A program made the position numbers and the translations under genes. A model generated the notes under the pieces. That model ran no database searches. It was not told the origin of the DNA and was given only the letters and a program-made list of their open reading frames with translations. Below, one piece after another: positions 2,425 to 35,770 of a DNA stretch of 64,000 nt (position 1 is the first letter of the stretch; each line of letters begins with the position of its first letter). Source of the stretch: Dictyostelium discoideum (taxonomy: Eukaryota); contig CM000150.2 in assembly GCA_000004695.1 (NCBI GenBank), positions 3,328,001 through 3,392,000 of the forward strand, written 5' to 3'.

Positions 2425-3198
2425 ATGTTGAATAATTTAATTAATAAAAGATTATTTACTTTAAATAATACAAAGAAATTATTTTTAAATTCTCAACCAA
2501 AATTATATAGTTATAGTAATAAAAACAGACTTTTTTCAACAAATTCAACAAATTCAACAAACCCAACAAATTCAACAAATCCAACAAATCCAACAAACCC
2601 AACAAATTCAACAAATCCAACAAACTCAGCAAACTCAACAAATAATAATGATGAATATGAAGATAGAAATTATGATGAATATATTAAAAAAGGAATTTTT
2701 TTAGAAGATGATGATGGACAAACAAGAATGTATAAAATCTTAAAACATAAAATGCGTGAGACAGAAAAGGAACTTAGAGAAGGATTAAAAATGAGTGATG
2801 AAGAATTTTTTAAAGGTAAATCATCATCAAAACAAATTTTCCTTAGTAGACATGGCACAATTACATTGGCAGTGACATTAGCAATTTTCACAGCAACTGC
2901 AATGTTCTTTTATTTTGGAAAGAGAAAACACATTTTATTATCACAACAAGTCGATTATCATACAACTGCAATCACCAATGAATTAAATCAATTAACAAGT
3001 GATAATCAAAAAATTTACGATTCTTTATCTTCCTCTCAAAATCAAGATCAATTAATAACTTTATTAATTGATAAAATCTTAATTGAAAAAGGTATTCTCA
3101 ATAATAATAATAATAATAATAAATCAATAACCCCAGCTGAATTAAATAAAATAAAATCAGAATTAAAATCAATAATTGTAAATAGTATTAATAAATAA
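2425..3198 (+). CDS. Hypothetical single-pass membrane protein with a presequence-like N-terminus (257 aa)
   Basis: Basic, hydroxylated N-terminus (MLNNLINKRLFTLNNTKKLF...RLFS) that resembles a mitochondrial presequence. (STNPTN)n repeat, one predicted TM helix (TLAVTLAIFTATAMFFYFG) and a coiled-coil-like C-terminus. No family recognised. Confidence 0.4.
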   Translation: MLNNLINKRLFTLNNTKKLFLNSQPKLYSYSNKNRLFSTNSTNSTNPTNSTNPTNPTNPTNSTNPTNSANSTNNNDEYEDRNYDEYIKKGIFLEDDDGQTRMYKILKHKMRETEKELREGLKMSDEEFFKGKSSSKQIFLSRHGTITLAVTLAIFTATAMFFYFGKRKHILLSQQVDYHTTAITNELNQLTSDNQKIYDSLSSSQNQDQLITLLIDKILIEKGILNNNNNNNKSITPAELNKIKSELKSIIVNSINK

Positions 3199-3387
3199 AA
3201 AATAAATAAATAAATAAATAAATAAAAAAAAACAAAAAAAAATCCAAAAAAAAAAAAAAAACAATTGTTTTTTGGTTTTTGATTTGTTTCAACCAAAAAA
3301 AAAAAAATATCTGATTGTGTTGATGGCCATTTTATTTTTATTTTTCATTTTTTTTTTATTTTTATTTTTTTTAATTTTTTTTTTTTT

Positions 3388-24106: not shown

Positions 24107-26728
24107 ATGACATCAAATTATCAATATCCCAATCCAAAAAGTTATACAAATAATAATAAAAATTTCGATCAACATTATGTATGGGGATGGAATGAAGGAC
24201 GACAATTAGGAATTGGTCATTACCAAAATGGTATGGAAATTGTTAAAGAACCCTATAGTTTAGGTGGTTCACATAATTTTGATACGAAATCAATATCAAT
24301 AGGTATGGCTCATTCACTAGCTATCGATAGTAGAGGTCAACTTTATTCATGTGGTAAAACTGCATATGGTAGATTAGGTTTGGGTGATTATTTATCACAA
24401 AATCAACAAAATATAAAAGAATTTACACAAATTAAATTAAATAAAGATGATAATGATGATCATGATAACAGTTATAGTTATAGTTATACTAGTAGTAGAA
24501 TTAATAATAAAATAAATAATAAAATAAATAATTCAATTAATAACTATATTAAAGTTAATAAAATTTCATGTGGTAGTGCACATAGTGCATTTATAACAGA
24601 GAATTTTCAATTATTTACATTTGGTAAAAATGATCAAGGTCAGTTGGGTCAAGGTTTAATAAATGAATTACATTCACCAAAGAGAGTTATTTATATTCAA
24701 TATAGTTTCAATCCAAATGAAATTGATCAAAGTAAAGCAATCACTGAAAAATCTACAAACTATCATGATAATGTCGATTTGGTGGCATGCGGTTTAAATC
24801 ATACTGTATTCAGTTTAAAAGATGGTTGTGTTTATTCAATGGGTAGTAATAAATTTTCACAATTAGGTTATCAGAGTACTATAAATGATAAAGTTTCACC
24901 AATTGTACAACCTGATGGAATTGTACAACCATCACCACCACTACCACTATTAGAACATAGACCAAGATTAATTGAATCTTTAAATTTACCACCACAACAT
25001 TTAGAACAACGTTTTACAAATATAAAATCAATATCATGTGGTTCAAATTTTACTGTTTGTATTAAACAAGGTAATCTTTATACTTGGGGTACAAATAATT
25101 TGGGTCAATGTGGTTTTAATCCAAAAGAAAATGATGATATTATTACAACAACTTCATCGTCATCATCATCAACCACTACCAATAATAATAATAATATAAT
25201 AATTAATAAACCAAAATTATTAATAATTTATGGTGATAAATCAACATTATCAACAGATTCAAATAATGGTAATGGTAAAAGAGTATTTAATTTTACTCAA
25301 GTTTCATGTGGTGTTGATCATTGTTTAGCATTAACTAATAATGGTCAAGTATTTGGATGGGGTGATAATAAGTATGGTCAAATTGGTCAATTAACATTTT
25401 CATCCGTTATAAAGATTGATACAACCACACCAATTAGAATTGGTGAATCATTAACCAATGAATTTATTACACAAATTTCAAGTGGTGCTTATCATTCAAT
25501 GGCATTAACTAAATCAAGTATAATCTATGCATGGGGTTTAAATGATAAGTGTCAAATTGGTGAAATTGGTAAAAATCAACAAGAAATCATTCAAACTCCC
25601 TGTCGTGTTAGATTTACAAATGCCAAAGAAAATTGTGCACCCATTTTACAAATATCTGCAGGTGGTAGATCATCAATGGCTATTAAATATTCACCCTCAA
25701 AAGTTGATATTAGACCATCGACCTATTTCGATGACATTTTAAGAATATTAGAAAATAAAAGTTTTCAAGACTTTAATTTAAACATTACAGATAATGAAGG
25801 TAAAATTAAAGAAATGTTTAAATTAAATAAACTATTTTGGAATAGATCATTGGTTTTACAATCATTGAAATCAAAAGAATTAACATCAACATCCTCAACC
25901 AATGTTGCAATTGAAAAATCAGAATTTATCAAAACTTTTAATGATTACTCAATAAAAGAAATCATTCAAGATCTATATATTGATGCACCAAGTAATCAAA
26001 GTTTTATTACAACTTCAATTTCTGAATATTTATTCTCAATGATTAATCAATCATCATTTTCTGATGTTAAAATTAAAGTAATTTGTAGAAATGATCAAGA
26101 TGATAAAGAAGTGACAAAAATTTTTAATGCACATAAATGTTTATTAGTAAATAGATCAGAGAAATTCAAAACATTATTAGAATCAAACTATTTTAAAGAA
26201 TCTATAGATGGTGTAATTACAATCGATGATTCGCCATCATTTCAAGTTTATGAAACATTTTTAACCTATTTATATACTGATGTATTAAATTTAAATAATG
26301 AAAATGTCATTGATTTATTTTTATTATCACACAGAGAATCTCAAAATAGAATGAAAGATTTAATTGAAGAATATTTATTCAATTCATTAGATATTGATAA
26401 TGTTTCAAACATTTTCGAATTGGCTTTACAATTAAATGATAATGCTATTTCAATCGATTCAAAAGGTATAAATAACTTTCTCATTGGTCAATGTATTTTC
26501 TTTATTGCTAAAAATTTAGAACAAGTTTCAAAAACTGAATCATTCATTAATTTATCTGATAATTCAAAAATAATTTTATCATCAAATTCAATTAATTTAA
26601 ATAATTCAAAATCAAATAAATCTTTAAATAATAATAATAATAATAATAATAATACCAACACTAATGATGATAATAATGATAATGATTTAAATAATGGTAA
26701 TAATGGTAAAAAATGTATTATATGTTAA
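24107..26728 (+). CDS. RCC1-repeat and BTB/POZ domain protein (873 aa)
   Basis: Multiple RCC1 blades (YVWGWNEGRQLGIGH, CGKTAYGRLGLGD, FGKNDQGQLGQG, WGTNNLGQCGF, WGDNKYGQIGQ, WGLNDKCQIGE). C-terminal BTB domain FSDVKIKVICRNDQDDKEVTKIFNAHKCLLVNRSEKFKTLLESNYF..VYETFLTYLYTD. Single ORF. Confidence 0.8.
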   Translation: MTSNYQYPNPKSYTNNNKNFDQHYVWGWNEGRQLGIGHYQNGMEIVKEPYSLGGSHNFDTKSISIGMAHSLAIDSRGQLYSCGKTAYGRLGLGDYLSQNQQNIKEFTQIKLNKDDNDDHDNSYSYSYTSSRINNKINNKINNSINNYIKVNKISCGSAHSAFITENFQLFTFGKNDQGQLGQGLINELHSPKRVIYIQYSFNPNEIDQSKAITEKSTNYHDNVDLVACGLNHTVFSLKDGCVYSMGSNKFSQLGYQSTINDKVSPIVQPDGIVQPSPPLPLLEHRPRLIESLNLPPQHLEQRFTNIKSISCGSNFTVCIKQGNLYTWGTNNLGQCGFNPKENDDIITTTSSSSSSTTTNNNNNIIINKPKLLIIYGDKSTLSTDSNNGNGKRVFNFTQVSCGVDHCLALTNNGQVFGWGDNKYGQIGQLTFSSVIKIDTTTPIRIGESLTNEFITQISSGAYHSMALTKSSIIYAWGLNDKCQIGEIGKNQQEIIQTPCRVRFTNAKENCAPILQISAGGRSSMAIKYSPSKVDIRPSTYFDDILRILENKSFQDFNLNITDNEGKIKEMFKLNKLFWNRSLVLQSLKSKELTSTSSTNVAIEKSEFIKTFNDYSIKEIIQDLYIDAPSNQSFITTSISEYLFSMINQSSFSDVKIKVICRNDQDDKEVTKIFNAHKCLLVNRSEKFKTLLESNYFKESIDGVITIDDSPSFQVYETFLTYLYTDVLNLNNENVIDLFLLSHRESQNRMKDLIEEYLFNSLDIDNVSNIFELALQLNDNAISIDSKGINNFLIGQCIFFIAKNLEQVSKTESFINLSDNSKIILSSNSINLNNSKSNKSLNNNNNNNNNTNTNDDNNDNDLNNGNNGKKCIIC

Positions 26729-26770: not shown

Positions 26771-30939
<4,169 letters not shown>

Positions 30940-31759
30940 CTCTAAATAATTTTTTATCTAGCGCCAATAAAAAAAAAAAAAATTAAAGATTGAAGGGCTC
31001 ATGAAAAAATTTTGAAAAAAATTAAAAAATAATTGTTTTTAAAAAATTTGAATTTACAAGAATTCTATTTAGGAGAAAAAAAAAACAGTTAAAAAATTTT
31101 ATTTTTTTTATTTATTTATTTATTTATGTATTTACTTATTTTATTTATTTATTTATTTATTTATTTATTTGTTTATTTATTTTTTCAATGTGGTGAAAAA
31201 CATGGAAAAAAAAATATAAGAAATTATAAAAAAAATAATAAAGTGAAAAAAAAAATAAAATAAAAAAAAAAAATAAAAAACAATGAAAAAATAAAAAAAA
31301 AAAAGATATTTTTTGATAGTAAAAAAAAATAAAAAAAAAAAAAAAAGGAATAATTTTAAATTTCGAATAAAAATACCAAACTTAATTTTTTTTTTTTTTT
31401 TTTTTTTTTATATTTTTGGATCCAATTATTTCCAATTTTTTTTTTTTTTTTACAAAAATCACAAATTTAGTAAATCAGTCTTAATTTTCGAAATTAAATA
31501 AAATAGTAATAGCAACAATCATAATGGTAAGAGAATAATAATAATAATAATAATAATAAATCACAACAACAAAATAATAATTCAAATAGTGCACCAAATA
31601 CCCAACTTTACCAAGTTTATTTTTTTTTTGTTTTTGTTTATTTTTTTTTTTTTTAAAGTTAAATAAATTGAATATAAACAAAAAAATAAAAAAAAAAAAA
31701 TAAAAAAAAAGCAAACCAAATTTGATTTGATCAACCAATTTTTGATGACCAAAAAAAAA

Positions 31760-31798
<39 letters not shown>

Positions 31799-31877
31799 AA
31801 TAAAAAAAAAAAATAAAAAAAAAAATAAAAAAAAAACTTTTTTTTTTATTTTTTTTTTTTTTTTGGGTTTTTTTCTT

Positions 31878-31925
<48 letters not shown>

Positions 31926-32339: not shown

Positions 32340-32549
32340 ATGGTAAAAGATATTAAAGTAATGGTTGTAGGTGATATGAGTGTAGGTAAGACATGTTTAC
32401 TCATTTCCTACACTACAAATTCATTCCCCGGAGAATATGTTCCAACTGTTTTTGGTATGTTTATTATTTATTATTATTTATTATTTATTATTCATTATAA
32501 TTAATGATTACTTGACACTAATATCCAATAAATCTTAAACAAATAATAA

Positions 32550-32616
<67 letters not shown>

Positions 32617-33265
32617 AATAACAACTACATATATAGATAATTATAATGCAAATGCAATAGTTAATAATACACCAATAAATTTAGGACTTTGGGATACTGC
32701 TGGTAGTGAGGAGTACAATTCATTCCGTCCACTTAGTTATCCAGGTACAGATGTATTTATTATTTGTTTTTCTTTAATTTCACAAACAAGTTTTGAAAAT
32801 GTCATTAAAAAGGTATGAATCACTTTAAACGTTTATCATATGATATAACTATAAATATGGTTGTTTATTTTTTATTATTGTATTATTATTATAATTACTA
32901 ACTTCATCCCTCCATCACCTATATATATTTATTATTATTTCAAAATATTTTAGTGGCACCCAGAAATTATTCAAAATATGGAACAAGTCCCACCAATTAT
33001 TTTAGTTGGAACTAAATTAGATCTTCGTGGTAAAGGTAAAAGTGAAGAAAAAGAAGTTACACCAGAAATGGGTGAACAAATGAGAGCAGCAATTGGTGCT
33101 TATAAATATTCTGAATGTTCTGCACTCACTCAAGATGGTTTAACAACTGTATTCGAAGAAGCAGGTAGAGTTGTACTCTTCCCTCCTTCAAAAGAGGAAT
33201 TGGCTAAATCAAAAAAAGACTCTAAAAAAGGTGATAAAGACTCAAAGGATTGTATAATACAATAA
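32340..33265 (+). CDS. Rho/Rac-family small GTPase with substitutions at the G12/A13 and Q61 positions and a CAAX box (CIIQ)
   Basis: Three exons: join(32340..32454, 32637..32812, 32954..33265). Donors GTATGT and GTATGA, acceptors atatAG and tttAG. The product is [39 protein letters not shown]|[58 protein letters not shown]|[33 protein letters not shown]. This aligns with Rac1 across its whole length. Confidence 0.85.
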
Positions 33266-33679
33266 AATCTTTTTTTTTTTTTTTTAATTGTGTCAAATAT
33301 TAAAAAAAAAAAAAAAAAAAAAAATAAATAAAAAAAAAAAATAAATAAAAAAAAAAAAAAAAATAAACATTTATAATAAATAATAGAAATGAAATAATAA
33401 TTAATAAAAGTAATAATAATAATAATTAATAATAATAAAAAAAAAAAAAAAAAAAAAAATAGAAATAGAAAAAAAAAAAAAAAAAAAAAAGAAATACCAT
33501 ATACAAGAGGTTATAAACAATATCTGTTAAATCAAAATTAATAGATTTTTTTTTTAAAAAAAAAGAATTCTGTAGAAAATAAACATAAACATTAAAAAAA
33601 AAAAAAAAAAAAAAAAAAGAGAATTGATCTTGAACTTATTTATTAATTCATTTATTTATTTAATTTATTTATTCTATTT

Positions 33680-35770
33680 TTAAAATTTTAACTTTTTTTC
33701 AATGGAAGATTTATGATGAGAAGTTGGTAAATGAATGATTGGAGTTAATAATTGTAAAATTTTAGTTTTAACAGATTGTAATTGTTGTGTATCATTTGGT
33801 TTTTCTATTTTTAAAGTTTGGAATAAACGAAAATAATATTGAATTAAAGAGTTTGTAAATACTTGATCAGCAGATACTTTTGATGGATTTGAAATCATTG
33901 ATTGTTCTAAAGCATTGGTGATCTCTTTATAAACTATATGATCAGGCATACCTTTCATTAGATATTCGTTATTTGTATTGAGTAGATTGGTAGCGATTGA
34001 TTGATGACGTTGTTGCATAATGTTAATTAATAAATTAATTTTCTTAAAAGTTCTTTGATCATGTTGAGAAGTGAATACACTTGAAGAGTCGTCTGGGCAA
34101 TTGATTTGTTTATTATCACTATTACATTTTAAACAGTGATAATAAAATCCGGATTCTATACTATCATTACTTGGTATTTTAAAAGAGGTATTTGAGGATG
34201 ATAATTGATTTTTACAAGATAAACATGACTGATCGGTTAATTTTGATTGAAATTTACATTGCTGACATTGGCAAAAGAAGAAATACTGTTTTAATAGATG
34301 TTTTCTACGTTCGGAGCATTCTGTAGTGATGTCAGTGTATGAGGTTAATATTTCTTCACCTTTTTTAATGGGTCTTAGTGTACGGAATACCATCATACCT
34401 TGATCGTCATTATACCAAAACGCATTGGGCAGACATGAATGGTTTAGGTAGCTACCAGTGGGGAATATACCCAAACCATAGGTATGGCAATTCAACGGGT
34501 GTAGCATCTCATGACCATTTGATAATACAATTGAATAGATTTCAATGATTTCATCAATAGTTACACCACATTCATCAAAGAATTTCGGACCACGTAATTT
34601 ATTGAATATTGCAATCACACTTTGTGCCGATCTTTTAAATGCTTCCATTTGCTCAGGTTGTACTTTATCTAATGTTCTAGATAAGTTAATTAAATATTTA
34701 TAACTATCAAATATAAATGGATTTTGATGATTTAACCATTGTTTTGATTGATTTTCCTTTGAAAATGATTTGTTTTTCTTATCTTTTATAACATTTAATA
34801 AAACTCTAAACATGAATCTAAAATCACGAGTTTGTGAAGATGGATAATATTGTTTTAAAAAGTTTAGAATATCACATTCATCTTTATGATAATTAAGAGA
34901 ATATTCATCAACTGAACATTGAGGACAAAGTAAATGATTTTTACAATTTTTACATGTTTGATTGATTCTAATTGATTTATTAATTTTCTTAAAACAAAAA
35001 CCACAATTCTTTTCAATTTTATGATCTTCCAATACTGATGCGAATGGTGACACTCTTAATACCATAGTACCCTTTGGTAAATCTTCTGATGCCAATACAC
35101 ATCTACCAAATCCATCTCTCCATACTAATTCAATTGGAAATTGTTGAAATTGTTCAAAATCTTCTTTAATTCTATCTTGACTTTCTTTTTCCTCTTTTTC
35201 TAATTTTTTTAATTTTTTTTCAATTTCTTTTCTTTCATTTTCAATTATTTGTTTTAAAGATTTATCAATTATAACTTTACCATTATTATTATTATTATTA
35301 ATTGAATTTAATGCATCATTAATTGATTTAAATGATTCTTTAAAATTACACATATATTGATAACATAATGATTTCCTATAATGACATTTTGAATTATCTT
35401 TATCAATTTCAGTACCTTTATTTGCAAATTCTAACGCTTTATCAATTTCATAACCATTTATAAAACATAATGATAAATTTGAATAAATTATTGATACTAA
35501 TTTTTTTAATTCTATTTCATCATCTTTATTATTATTATTATTATTTTTTAATTTTTCAAAATTATCATTAAAACATTCAATTCCTAATGAATAATATGTA
35601 ACTGCTCTTTTATTTAAATTATCATTGGTTTTATCATATTTTGAAAATTCTTGATTTCCTAATTGTTTAAATTCTTCAATTTTTTTAAATAATTGTTTAA
35701 AATTTAAAATTTCATTATTGTTTTTATTATTATTATTATTATTATTATTGTGGTCTGGTATTGAAGACAT
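33680..35770 (-). CDS. SMYD-type SET + MYND zinc-finger protein (696 aa)
   Basis: SET N-region FPIELVWRDGFGRCVLASEDLPKGTMVLRVSPFASV. MYND finger CGFCFKKINKSIRINQTCKNCKNHLLCPQCSVDEYSLNYHKDEC. SET core and post-SET region NHSCLPNAFW..GEEILTSYTDITTECSERRKHLLKQYFFFCQCQQC. TPR-like N-terminus. Confidence 0.8.
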   Translation of the reverse strand: MSSIPDHNNNNNNNNKNNNEILNFKQLFKKIEEFKQLGNQEFSKYDKTNDNLNKRAVTYYSLGIECFNDNFEKLKNNNNNNKDDEIELKKLVSIIYSNLSLCFINGYEIDKALEFANKGTEIDKDNSKCHYRKSLCYQYMCNFKESFKSINDALNSINNNNNNGKVIIDKSLKQIIENERKEIEKKLKKLEKEEKESQDRIKEDFEQFQQFPIELVWRDGFGRCVLASEDLPKGTMVLRVSPFASVLEDHKIEKNCGFCFKKINKSIRINQTCKNCKNHLLCPQCSVDEYSLNYHKDECDILNFLKQYYPSSQTRDFRFMFRVLLNVIKDKKNKSFSKENQSKQWLNHQNPFIFDSYKYLINLSRTLDKVQPEQMEAFKRSAQSVIAIFNKLRGPKFFDECGVTIDEIIEIYSIVLSNGHEMLHPLNCHTYGLGIFPTGSYLNHSCLPNAFWYNDDQGMMVFRTLRPIKKGEEILTSYTDITTECSERRKHLLKQYFFFCQCQQCKFQSKLTDQSCLSCKNQLSSSNTSFKIPSNDSIESGFYYHCLKCNSDNKQINCPDDSSSVFTSQHDQRTFKKINLLINIMQQRHQSIATNLLNTNNEYLMKGMPDHIVYKEITNALEQSMISNPSKVSADQVFTNSLIQYYFRLFQTLKIEKPNDTQQLQSVKTKILQLLTPIIHLPTSHHKSSIEKKLKF

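Follow-up and report, generated by a model that had tools for sequence, protein, structure and literature searches.

The window analysed in this work is a stretch of 64,000 nucleotides of Dictyostelium discoideum DNA (contig CM000150.2 of assembly GCA_000004695.1), and the three-exon locus at positions 32340-33265 of its forward strand is racH, the gene of a Rho/Rac GTPase in which the residues equivalent to Gly12, Ala13 and Gln61 of human Rac1 are all replaced. The gene is not new: racH is already named and studied, a knockout has been published, and both gene and sequence have long been public. What we add is modest, namely that Ser61, a CxxQ tail and a residue other than Arg at position 66 form a signature of a large clade of RacH relatives, and that Met12 and a deletion in the Rho insert are specific to Dictyostelia. 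Seen against the textbook rules of GTPase function, these features point to a GTP-locked, farnesylated protein of the kind represented by animal Rnd and RhoH; we consider this a sound inference, and one that is somewhat better than evenly supported. Unless noted otherwise, all features described below lie on the forward strand and are given in window coordinates.

RacH and its catalytic-site residues

The product of the locus is identical over its full length (200/200 residues, exact-sequence look-up) to UniProt Q9GPR7 (XP_646202.1, EAL71970.1), the 'Rho-related protein racH' of AX4, and the public annotation gives the identical 926-base gene range with the same neighbours. An earlier note on this DNA had read a Rho/Rac GTPase here with the right gene model and had asked which paralogue it might be, without recognising the named gene; the exact match to RacH answers that question. 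The Pfam Ras family (PF00071) is matched with 155 bits against a cut-off of 21.6 (E = 1.6e-45), and the best relatives of solved structure are human Rac1, Rac2 and Rac3, with 65% identity to Rac1 over the G domain. With E values of 6e-129 (cluster representative) and 2e-68 (human Rac1), a chance match is not at issue. The AlphaFold model (mean predicted local distance difference test score, pLDDT, of 74; switch I below 50) matches Rac1 structures, which confirms the Rac fold and is silent on catalysis.

RacH retains the motifs for binding of guanine nucleotide and Mg2+. The P-loop (G1, GxxxxGK[ST]) reads GDMSVGKT (G11-T18, 32370-32393); switch I (G2) carries T36 in an effector loop that is nearly the same as that of Rac1; DTAG (58-61, G3), the guanine specificity motif TKLD (T117-D120, 33011-33022, G4) and CSAL (C152-L155, 33116-33127, G5) are all intact. 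In the alignment with Rac1, where RacH has one extra N-terminal residue, M13 (ATG, 32376-32378) stands for Gly12, S14 (AGT, 32379-32381) for Ala13 and S62 (AGT, 32705-32707) for the catalytic Gln61. Note that positions 12, 61 and 66 are quoted in Rac1 numbering throughout. S62 is part of the G3/switch II segment DTAGSEEY (D58-Y65, 32693-32716), and a little further along switch II S67 (32720-32722) occupies the position of Rac1 Arg66. The motif readings of the earlier note (GDMSVGKT, DTAGSEEY and a C-terminal CIIQ) are all found in the spliced protein. By virtue of M13 and S62, RacH falls within the atypical class of Rho proteins as defined by sequence (non-Gly12, non-Gln61; PMC8305018).

Another choice of exon junctions had been named as something that might bring back Gly12 or Gln61. 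Codon 13 is 76 nt away from the closest splice site, and codon 62 lies 68 nt and 105 nt from the junctions on its two sides; because the deviant codons are at least 68 nt away from splice sites, no junction choice can give Gly or Gln. Alternative splicing of this kind is ruled out also by the three reading frames of exon 2, which provide no alternative.

Two further features distinguish the C-terminal half of the protein. Rho-family proteins typically carry an insert of about 13 residues behind the G4 motif. RacH has such an insert (G123-T133, 33029-33061), but it lacks about 7 of the residues present in Rac1 and in the non-dictyostelid members of the clade described below. The alignment with Rac1 places gaps of 4 and 3 residues here, and the AlphaFold2 model has no helix at 121-133, at low pLDDT in this region. 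The protein ends in CIIQ (C197-Q200, 33251-33262), which has the form of a CAAX box. A CAAX box with Gln as X is a farnesyltransferase substrate (PMC9141697), in line with the farnesyl-type prediction made from the sequence earlier; this rule predicts a farnesyl anchor for RacH, and CxxQ tails are found across the clade. The preceding hypervariable region (S176-D196, 33188-33250) had been called lysine-rich. It does contain 8 Lys, but also 6 Asp/Glu, so its net charge is only +2, a value that fits an endomembrane rather than a plasma-membrane location.

Evolution of the RacH clade

The D. discoideum isolates and the sibling species that share a 90% identity cluster with RacH differ from it by 1-3 residues each (V109I, S127G and others) and keep all of the motifs. 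RacH shares 76-89% identity with its orthologues in D. purpureum, Tieghemostelium lacteum, Polysphondylium violaceum, Acytostelium subglobosum and Cavenderia fasciculata, and all of these carry the [ED]EY ending of the switch II motif and a CI[IL]Q tail. The deviant motifs are thereby conserved across independent genomes of five dictyostelid genera. GDMSVGKT is found in every intact dictyostelid sequence (14/14) and in none of the other relatives. Beyond Dictyostelia there are about 100 further relatives, 60-73% identical to RacH, that combine GDG[NSA]VGKT with DTAGS. Only a few of them are named, and these are all Amoebozoa (including Physarum); the rest are mostly metagenome or transcriptome sequences.

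The conservation within this clade follows a clear pattern. Ser62 is invariant among the 107 aligned members, and the position of Rac1 Arg66 is occupied by Thr, Ser or Ala in all 107 and never by Arg. The residues that bind nucleotide and Mg are likewise invariant in the 107 sequences (G11, G16, K17, T18, T36, D58, G61, T117, K118, D120 and S153-L155), and the TKLD motif is invariant or nearly so. The tails of the aligned members are mostly CxxQ. Position 12 is different: it is Gly in each of the 100 aligned non-dictyostelid Ser61 relatives, which diverge to 65% identity, and Met12 is limited to the dictyostelid group. The Met12 sequences form a single cluster nested within a 'GDGN' subgroup of a neighbour-joining tree, which carries no support values and was used only to check that they group together. 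The shortening of the Rho insert, by 5-8 residues, has the same distribution, being confined to Dictyostelia and present in every one of them; the spacing between TKxD and ECSA is 28-31 residues in Dictyostelia as opposed to 36 in the relatives elsewhere.

Loss of Gly12 on the Ser61 background has occurred repeatedly: the replacement is Met in Dictyostelia, Ser in the eukprot sequence P0092 (GDSNVGKT) and Thr in Entamoeba, where proteins such as XP_653885 combine GDTNVGKT with DTSGSDDL. The P0092 entry (label m51a1_g2293) also contains a 34-residue segment twice in tandem, probably an artefact of assembly or annotation. One subgroup within the Ser61 clade lacks a CAAX box (P0015 from Physarum, P0025, P0033-P0037, P0039, P0041-P0043, P0045, P0047-P0048 and others, as well as Entamoeba XP_653885), and its tails are hydrophobic-basic, for example GGLFGKLFGGKKKEGKK or GSIFKKIFGK. 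This suggests that the members of this subgroup may bind membranes in a different, prenyl-independent way.

The ratio of non-synonymous to synonymous substitution rates (dN/dS) is 0.098 in comparison with D. purpureum and 0.10 in comparison with T. lacteum, the only two species for which it is usable, the synonymous divergence to Acytostelium being saturated. As dN/dS is about 0.1, racH is under strong purifying selection. The codon of Ser62 is AGT in D. discoideum and D. purpureum and TCA or TCG in T. lacteum and A. subglobosum. A switch between AGY and TCN serine codons requires two nucleotide changes, and the residue stays Ser.

Gene architecture and position are conserved as well. The two introns of D. 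discoideum racH (phase 1 after codon 38, phase 0 after codon 97) are kept in all four dictyostelid loci that were modelled. The position of intron 1 is common to D. purpureum, T. lacteum and A. subglobosum, and D. purpureum also shares the 115-nt length of exon 1; in Cavenderia an equal 115 nt of coding sequence precedes this position and is split among three exons. The T. lacteum and A. subglobosum orthologues have extra introns. One of those in Acytostelium (DF837581.1, L005:3451-3545) is a phase-1 intron within the Gly61 codon, directly before the Ser62 codon, and another follows K17 in the P-loop. Downstream of racH, a gene for a SET-domain protein lies tail-to-tail with it in D. discoideum and in three other species, D. 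purpureum, T. lacteum and C. fasciculata, and not in A. subglobosum; because these three have kept the convergent neighbour, the orthology is also positional. Identity with the reference, the two conserved introns and the conserved SET-domain neighbour all place the gene of the window in the racH orthologue group.

Some public gene models of the orthologues are in need of correction. The Cavenderia fasciculata RacH model P0018 (185 aa) is without 15 residues that the genome encodes (GL883010.1, L004:3001-3314). The residues are found when exon 1 (3001-3083), an 8-nt micro-exon CTTTCCAG (3157-3164) and the exon at 3291-3314 are included. Similar gaps are seen in the models P0022 and P0027, probably with the same cause.

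Taken together, the distribution of these features suggests that the Ser61, CxxQ and non-Arg66 signature is older than Dictyostelia, within a clade of which the named members belong to Amoebozoa, and that Met12 and the deletion in the insert probably arose in the ancestor of Dictyostelia and have stayed fixed from then on.

Predicted function and alternative explanations

In small GTPases Gln61 positions the attacking water, and a side chain of any kind at position 12 collides with the arginine finger of a GTPase-activating protein (GAP). The bulky side chain at position 12 of RacH would be expected to block this arginine finger, and the loss of Gln61 would take away the residue that positions the water, so that RacH would bind GTP and hydrolyse it very slowly, with a RhoGAP present or absent. 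Arg66 of Rac1 and Cdc42 is needed for binding of the Rho guanine nucleotide dissociation inhibitor (RhoGDI). RacH may be held on endomembranes by a farnesyl group and its weakly basic tail, and RhoGDI would not extract it. The main determinants of its output would then be the amount of protein and the place of anchoring, as in animal Rnd and RhoH, and the likeness to these proteins would reflect convergence rather than common descent. For this mechanism as a whole, i.e. a GTP-binding, hardly hydrolysing, farnesylated and RhoGDI-independent endomembrane protein controlled by its abundance, we see a modest balance of probability in favour. As to its history, we speculate that it was reached in two steps. 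The change from Gln61 to Ser, the loss of Arg66 and the CxxQ tail would belong to an old ancestor of the RacH clade, and the change from Gly12 to Met together with truncation of the Rho insert to the dictyostelid ancestor. That dictyostelid RacH is a convergent counterpart of Rnd and RhoH, GTP-locked, insensitive to GAPs, independent of RhoGDI and arrived at by this path, seems to us an evenly balanced proposition.

A precedent for such a protein exists. Rnd1-3 and RhoH are regarded as GTPase-deficient because Gly12 and Gln61 are absent, and the Rnd proteins are farnesylated (PMC8305018). The earlier note had appealed to the same animal proteins, and rightly so: Rnd3 indeed has Ser at both positions (PDB 1m7b). 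Substitutions at codon 12 of HRAS are all activating save Pro (Seeburg 1984, as summarised in PMC6813200). The published biology of RacH is consistent with a GTP-locked protein in two respects. RacH is found on the membranes of the nuclear envelope, the endoplasmic reticulum and the Golgi (PMC8305917), and overexpression of the wild-type protein alone leads to dose-dependent defects in growth and pinocytosis (PMC2724381). The knockout is impaired in macropinocytosis, acidification of early endosomes, exocytosis and the distribution of vacuolin, and racH-null cells form no ejectosome and are more permissive for Mycobacterium marinum and Legionella (PMC8305917).

There are also points that speak against a GTP-locked RacH, and most of them would be accounted for if the protein still cycled, either with the help of an unconventional GAP that brings in a catalytic residue of its own or by intrinsic hydrolysis that is slow but still quick enough for vesicle traffic, the GTP level being set by exchange factors such as GxcC. 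Such a GAP is not without parallel, as RapGAP inserts an Asn thumb for Rap, a GTPase that has Thr61 and tolerates G12V; we know, however, of no GAP of the Asn-thumb type for Rho proteins. The strict retention of Gly12 in the 100 Ser61 relatives would be hard to explain if Ser61 alone abolished hydrolysis, and it suggests that the geometry of the catalytic site still matters there; the strong constraint on the nucleotide-binding motifs and on switch I points in the same direction. The bacterial GAP YopE, which acts through an arginine finger, undoes the defects caused by moderate overexpression of RacH (PMC2724381). This evidence is indirect, as YopE also inactivates Rac1 and its effect could be explained by inactivation of other Racs, and Met12 of the dictyostelid protein should sterically exclude the arginine finger of YopE or of a RhoGAP. 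The guanine nucleotide exchange factor (GEF) GxcC, a DH-PH protein, binds strongly to a glutathione S-transferase fusion of RacH (GST-RacH) depleted of nucleotide by ethylenediaminetetraacetic acid (EDTA), which hints at regulated exchange; yet GxcC showed no exchange activity on any Rac, and it bound the very divergent RacI, which has no DxxG, as well. Q61S, for its part, is absent from the Ras substitutions listed in the relevant passage of the review PMC6813200. In the accessible literature we found no measurement of how RacH hydrolyses GTP or responds to GAPs, nor of its nucleotide state or its lipid, and no statement on its nucleotide cycle, though earlier work on RacH and its family (Rivero 2001, Somesh 2006) may contain such data. 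The GTPase-deficient Rnd/RhoH group is itself defined by this pair of replaced residues (PMC8305018). We regard a cycling RacH as a possible but rather doubtful alternative.

Two other readings can be regarded as effectively excluded. One of them sees RacH as a degenerate pseudo-GTPase that serves as a nucleotide-independent, membrane-anchored scaffold. The family does tolerate decay of this kind, as the degenerate G motifs of RacJ, RacO, RacQ and RacI demonstrate, but in RacH every residue that binds nucleotide or Mg is intact and invariant in the 107 relatives, dN/dS is low, identity to human Rac1 is high, and RacH induces actin polymerisation in a cell-free system (PMC8305917); this makes the scaffold reading very improbable. 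Least probable of all, to the point of being negligible, is that the deviant residues result from an error of sequencing, assembly or exon choice. Errors do exist in public models of the orthologues, the Cavenderia model P0018 with its 15 missing residues being an example, but there is no evidence of one in racH itself: the residues are distant from the splice sites, the reference protein is identical, and the motifs are shared by the other strains and species of the 90% cluster and by five dictyostelid genera.

A GTP-locked RacH remains, in our view, a reasonable mechanistic reading. The accessible reviews do not state it, nor do they comment on Met12 and Ser61 of RacH or on a possible GTPase deficiency, and it would apply to several other D. 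discoideum Racs too. In comparison with the earlier note, the observation is confirmed and the interpretation is partly supported. The question is of some practical interest, as RacH is a genetic handle for endocytic trafficking and for work on the amoeba as host of Mycobacterium marinum and Legionella, including the ejectosome. If RacH cannot hydrolyse GTP, 'active' mutants of the G12V or Q61L type and the logic of GAPs and GEFs do not apply to it, and its control should be sought in transcription, turnover, prenylation or phosphorylation; likewise, its interpretation as a target of YopE and as a partner of the GEF GxcC would need another reading if it is GTP-locked. It would also mean that 'atypical' GTP-locked Rho proteins had a separate origin outside the animals, and the non-dictyostelid relatives with Gly12 and Ser61 would represent a natural evolutionary intermediate.

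Gene structure and neighbouring genes

The coding sequence, which is 603 nt long after splicing and encodes 200 aa, consists of three exons joined over two GT..AG introns, with an ATG start at 32340 and a TAA stop at 33263-33265. Exon 1 (32340-32454, 115 nt) encodes M1-F38 and the first base of codon D39, including the P-loop and switch I, and its final G is followed by the donor gtatgt. Intron 1 (32455-32636, 182 nt, phase 1, 20% GC) is followed by exon 2 (32637-32812, 176 nt), which encodes the remainder of D39 to K97 and contains switch II. Intron 2 (32813-32953, 141 nt, phase 0) lies between K97 and W98, and exon 3 (32954-33265, 312 nt) encodes W98-Q200 and the stop codon. The introns had been placed after F38 and K96 in the earlier note. 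These positions hold and are conserved in four dictyostelid orthologues, except that intron 1 splits the codon of D39 and that intron 2 follows K97, K96 being the residue in Rac1 numbering. The GC content is 29-34% in the three coding blocks and 22.6% across the window.

Intron 1 contains a nearly perfect (AAC)26 microsatellite (32551-32629, 94% matches). Homopolymer A tracts of 86 and 45 bases are found upstream of racH (31751-31923), and the downstream region (33296-33618) has a 25-base A tract and 1.8 copies of an A-rich 137-bp unit. The tail-to-tail neighbour is a SET-domain protein gene on the reverse strand (33680-35770), a single-exon open reading frame (ORF) of 696 aa. Upstream of racH there are a gene for an RCC1-repeat/BTB protein of 873 aa (24107-26728) and, on the reverse strand, a gene at 26995-30939 whose product, 1350 aa long in the public annotation, has no recorded Pfam hit; within the window the longest unbroken ORF of this gene comes to 1314 aa. 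A tRNA scan across the window found none.

Comparison with known GTPases

It is useful to compare RacH with the other Racs of D. discoideum and with the Rho proteins of animals. According to the published sequences (PMC8305917), RacC, RacD, RacE, RacG, RacL and RacP have both Gly12 and Gln61 (supplementary table), and both residues are replaced in RacI (S12/L61), RacM (Y12/G61) and RacN (V12/G61). Other family members deviate in further ways: RacJ has D12 and no DxxG, RacO has F61 and ENDG, RacQ has no P-loop, and RacI has DSSA for DxxG. About one third of the D. discoideum Rac family is in this sense 'atypical' by sequence. RacI, RacM and RacN are like RacH in lacking both residues, but they are only 40-43% identical to it, and several of the deviant Racs have a degenerate DxxG or P-loop, whereas RacH is otherwise a conserved Rac-like protein with relatives that reach beyond Dictyostelia. 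In fact RacH has more in common with human Rac1 (65% identity) than with its D. discoideum paralogues, eleven of which were compared (40-53%). Judging from these alignments, RacH is not the sole D. discoideum Rac without both residues, a point that the earlier note had not recognised, but it is the sole one that is otherwise well conserved and Rac-like. RacH, RacD and RacP have been described as having no obvious metazoan homologues (PMC8305917).

At first sight RacH is much like human Rac1: the two proteins have nearly the same switch I and share the predicted fold, and RacH retains Trp56. The differences are the substitutions G12M, A13S, Q61S, D63E, D65N, R66S and L67F, the shorter insert, a tail that is weakly instead of strongly basic, and a CAAX box of the farnesyl type (CIIQ) in place of one of the geranylgeranyl type (CLLL). 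Animal Rnd3/RhoE, with Rnd1 and Rnd2, resembles RacH in several features: position 12 is not Gly (Ser in Rnd3), position 61 is Ser, position 66 is not Arg (Asn in Rnd3), the CAAX box is of the farnesyl type and the nucleotide-binding motifs are intact. However, the two proteins share only 40% identity, and Rnd3 has Ser in place of Ala59 (DTSGS) and an insert of full length. GTPase deficiency has been measured for the Rnd proteins, while for RacH it is deduced from the sequence.

RhoH differs from RacH in having Asn at position 61 and an ITAM-like motif (immunoreceptor tyrosine-based activation motif). RhoH has no PDB entry; its Rho insert may also be about 7 residues shorter than that of Rac1, which would add a shortened insert to its likenesses with RacH. 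Vertebrate RhoH and RacH are alike in that both lack Gly12 and Gln61 (for RhoH, PMC8305018), have a residue other than Arg at position 66 and have a farnesyl-type tail. RhoH occurs only in vertebrates, carries mostly a farnesyl group and is regarded as being controlled through its expression level (PMC2565660), and RacH is not orthologous to it. Descent of RacH from the Rnd/RhoH group is not upheld by the identity values, which favour Rac1 over Rnd3. As RacH sits inside a clade in which the named members belong to Amoebozoa, its resemblance to the Rnd proteins appears to be convergent.

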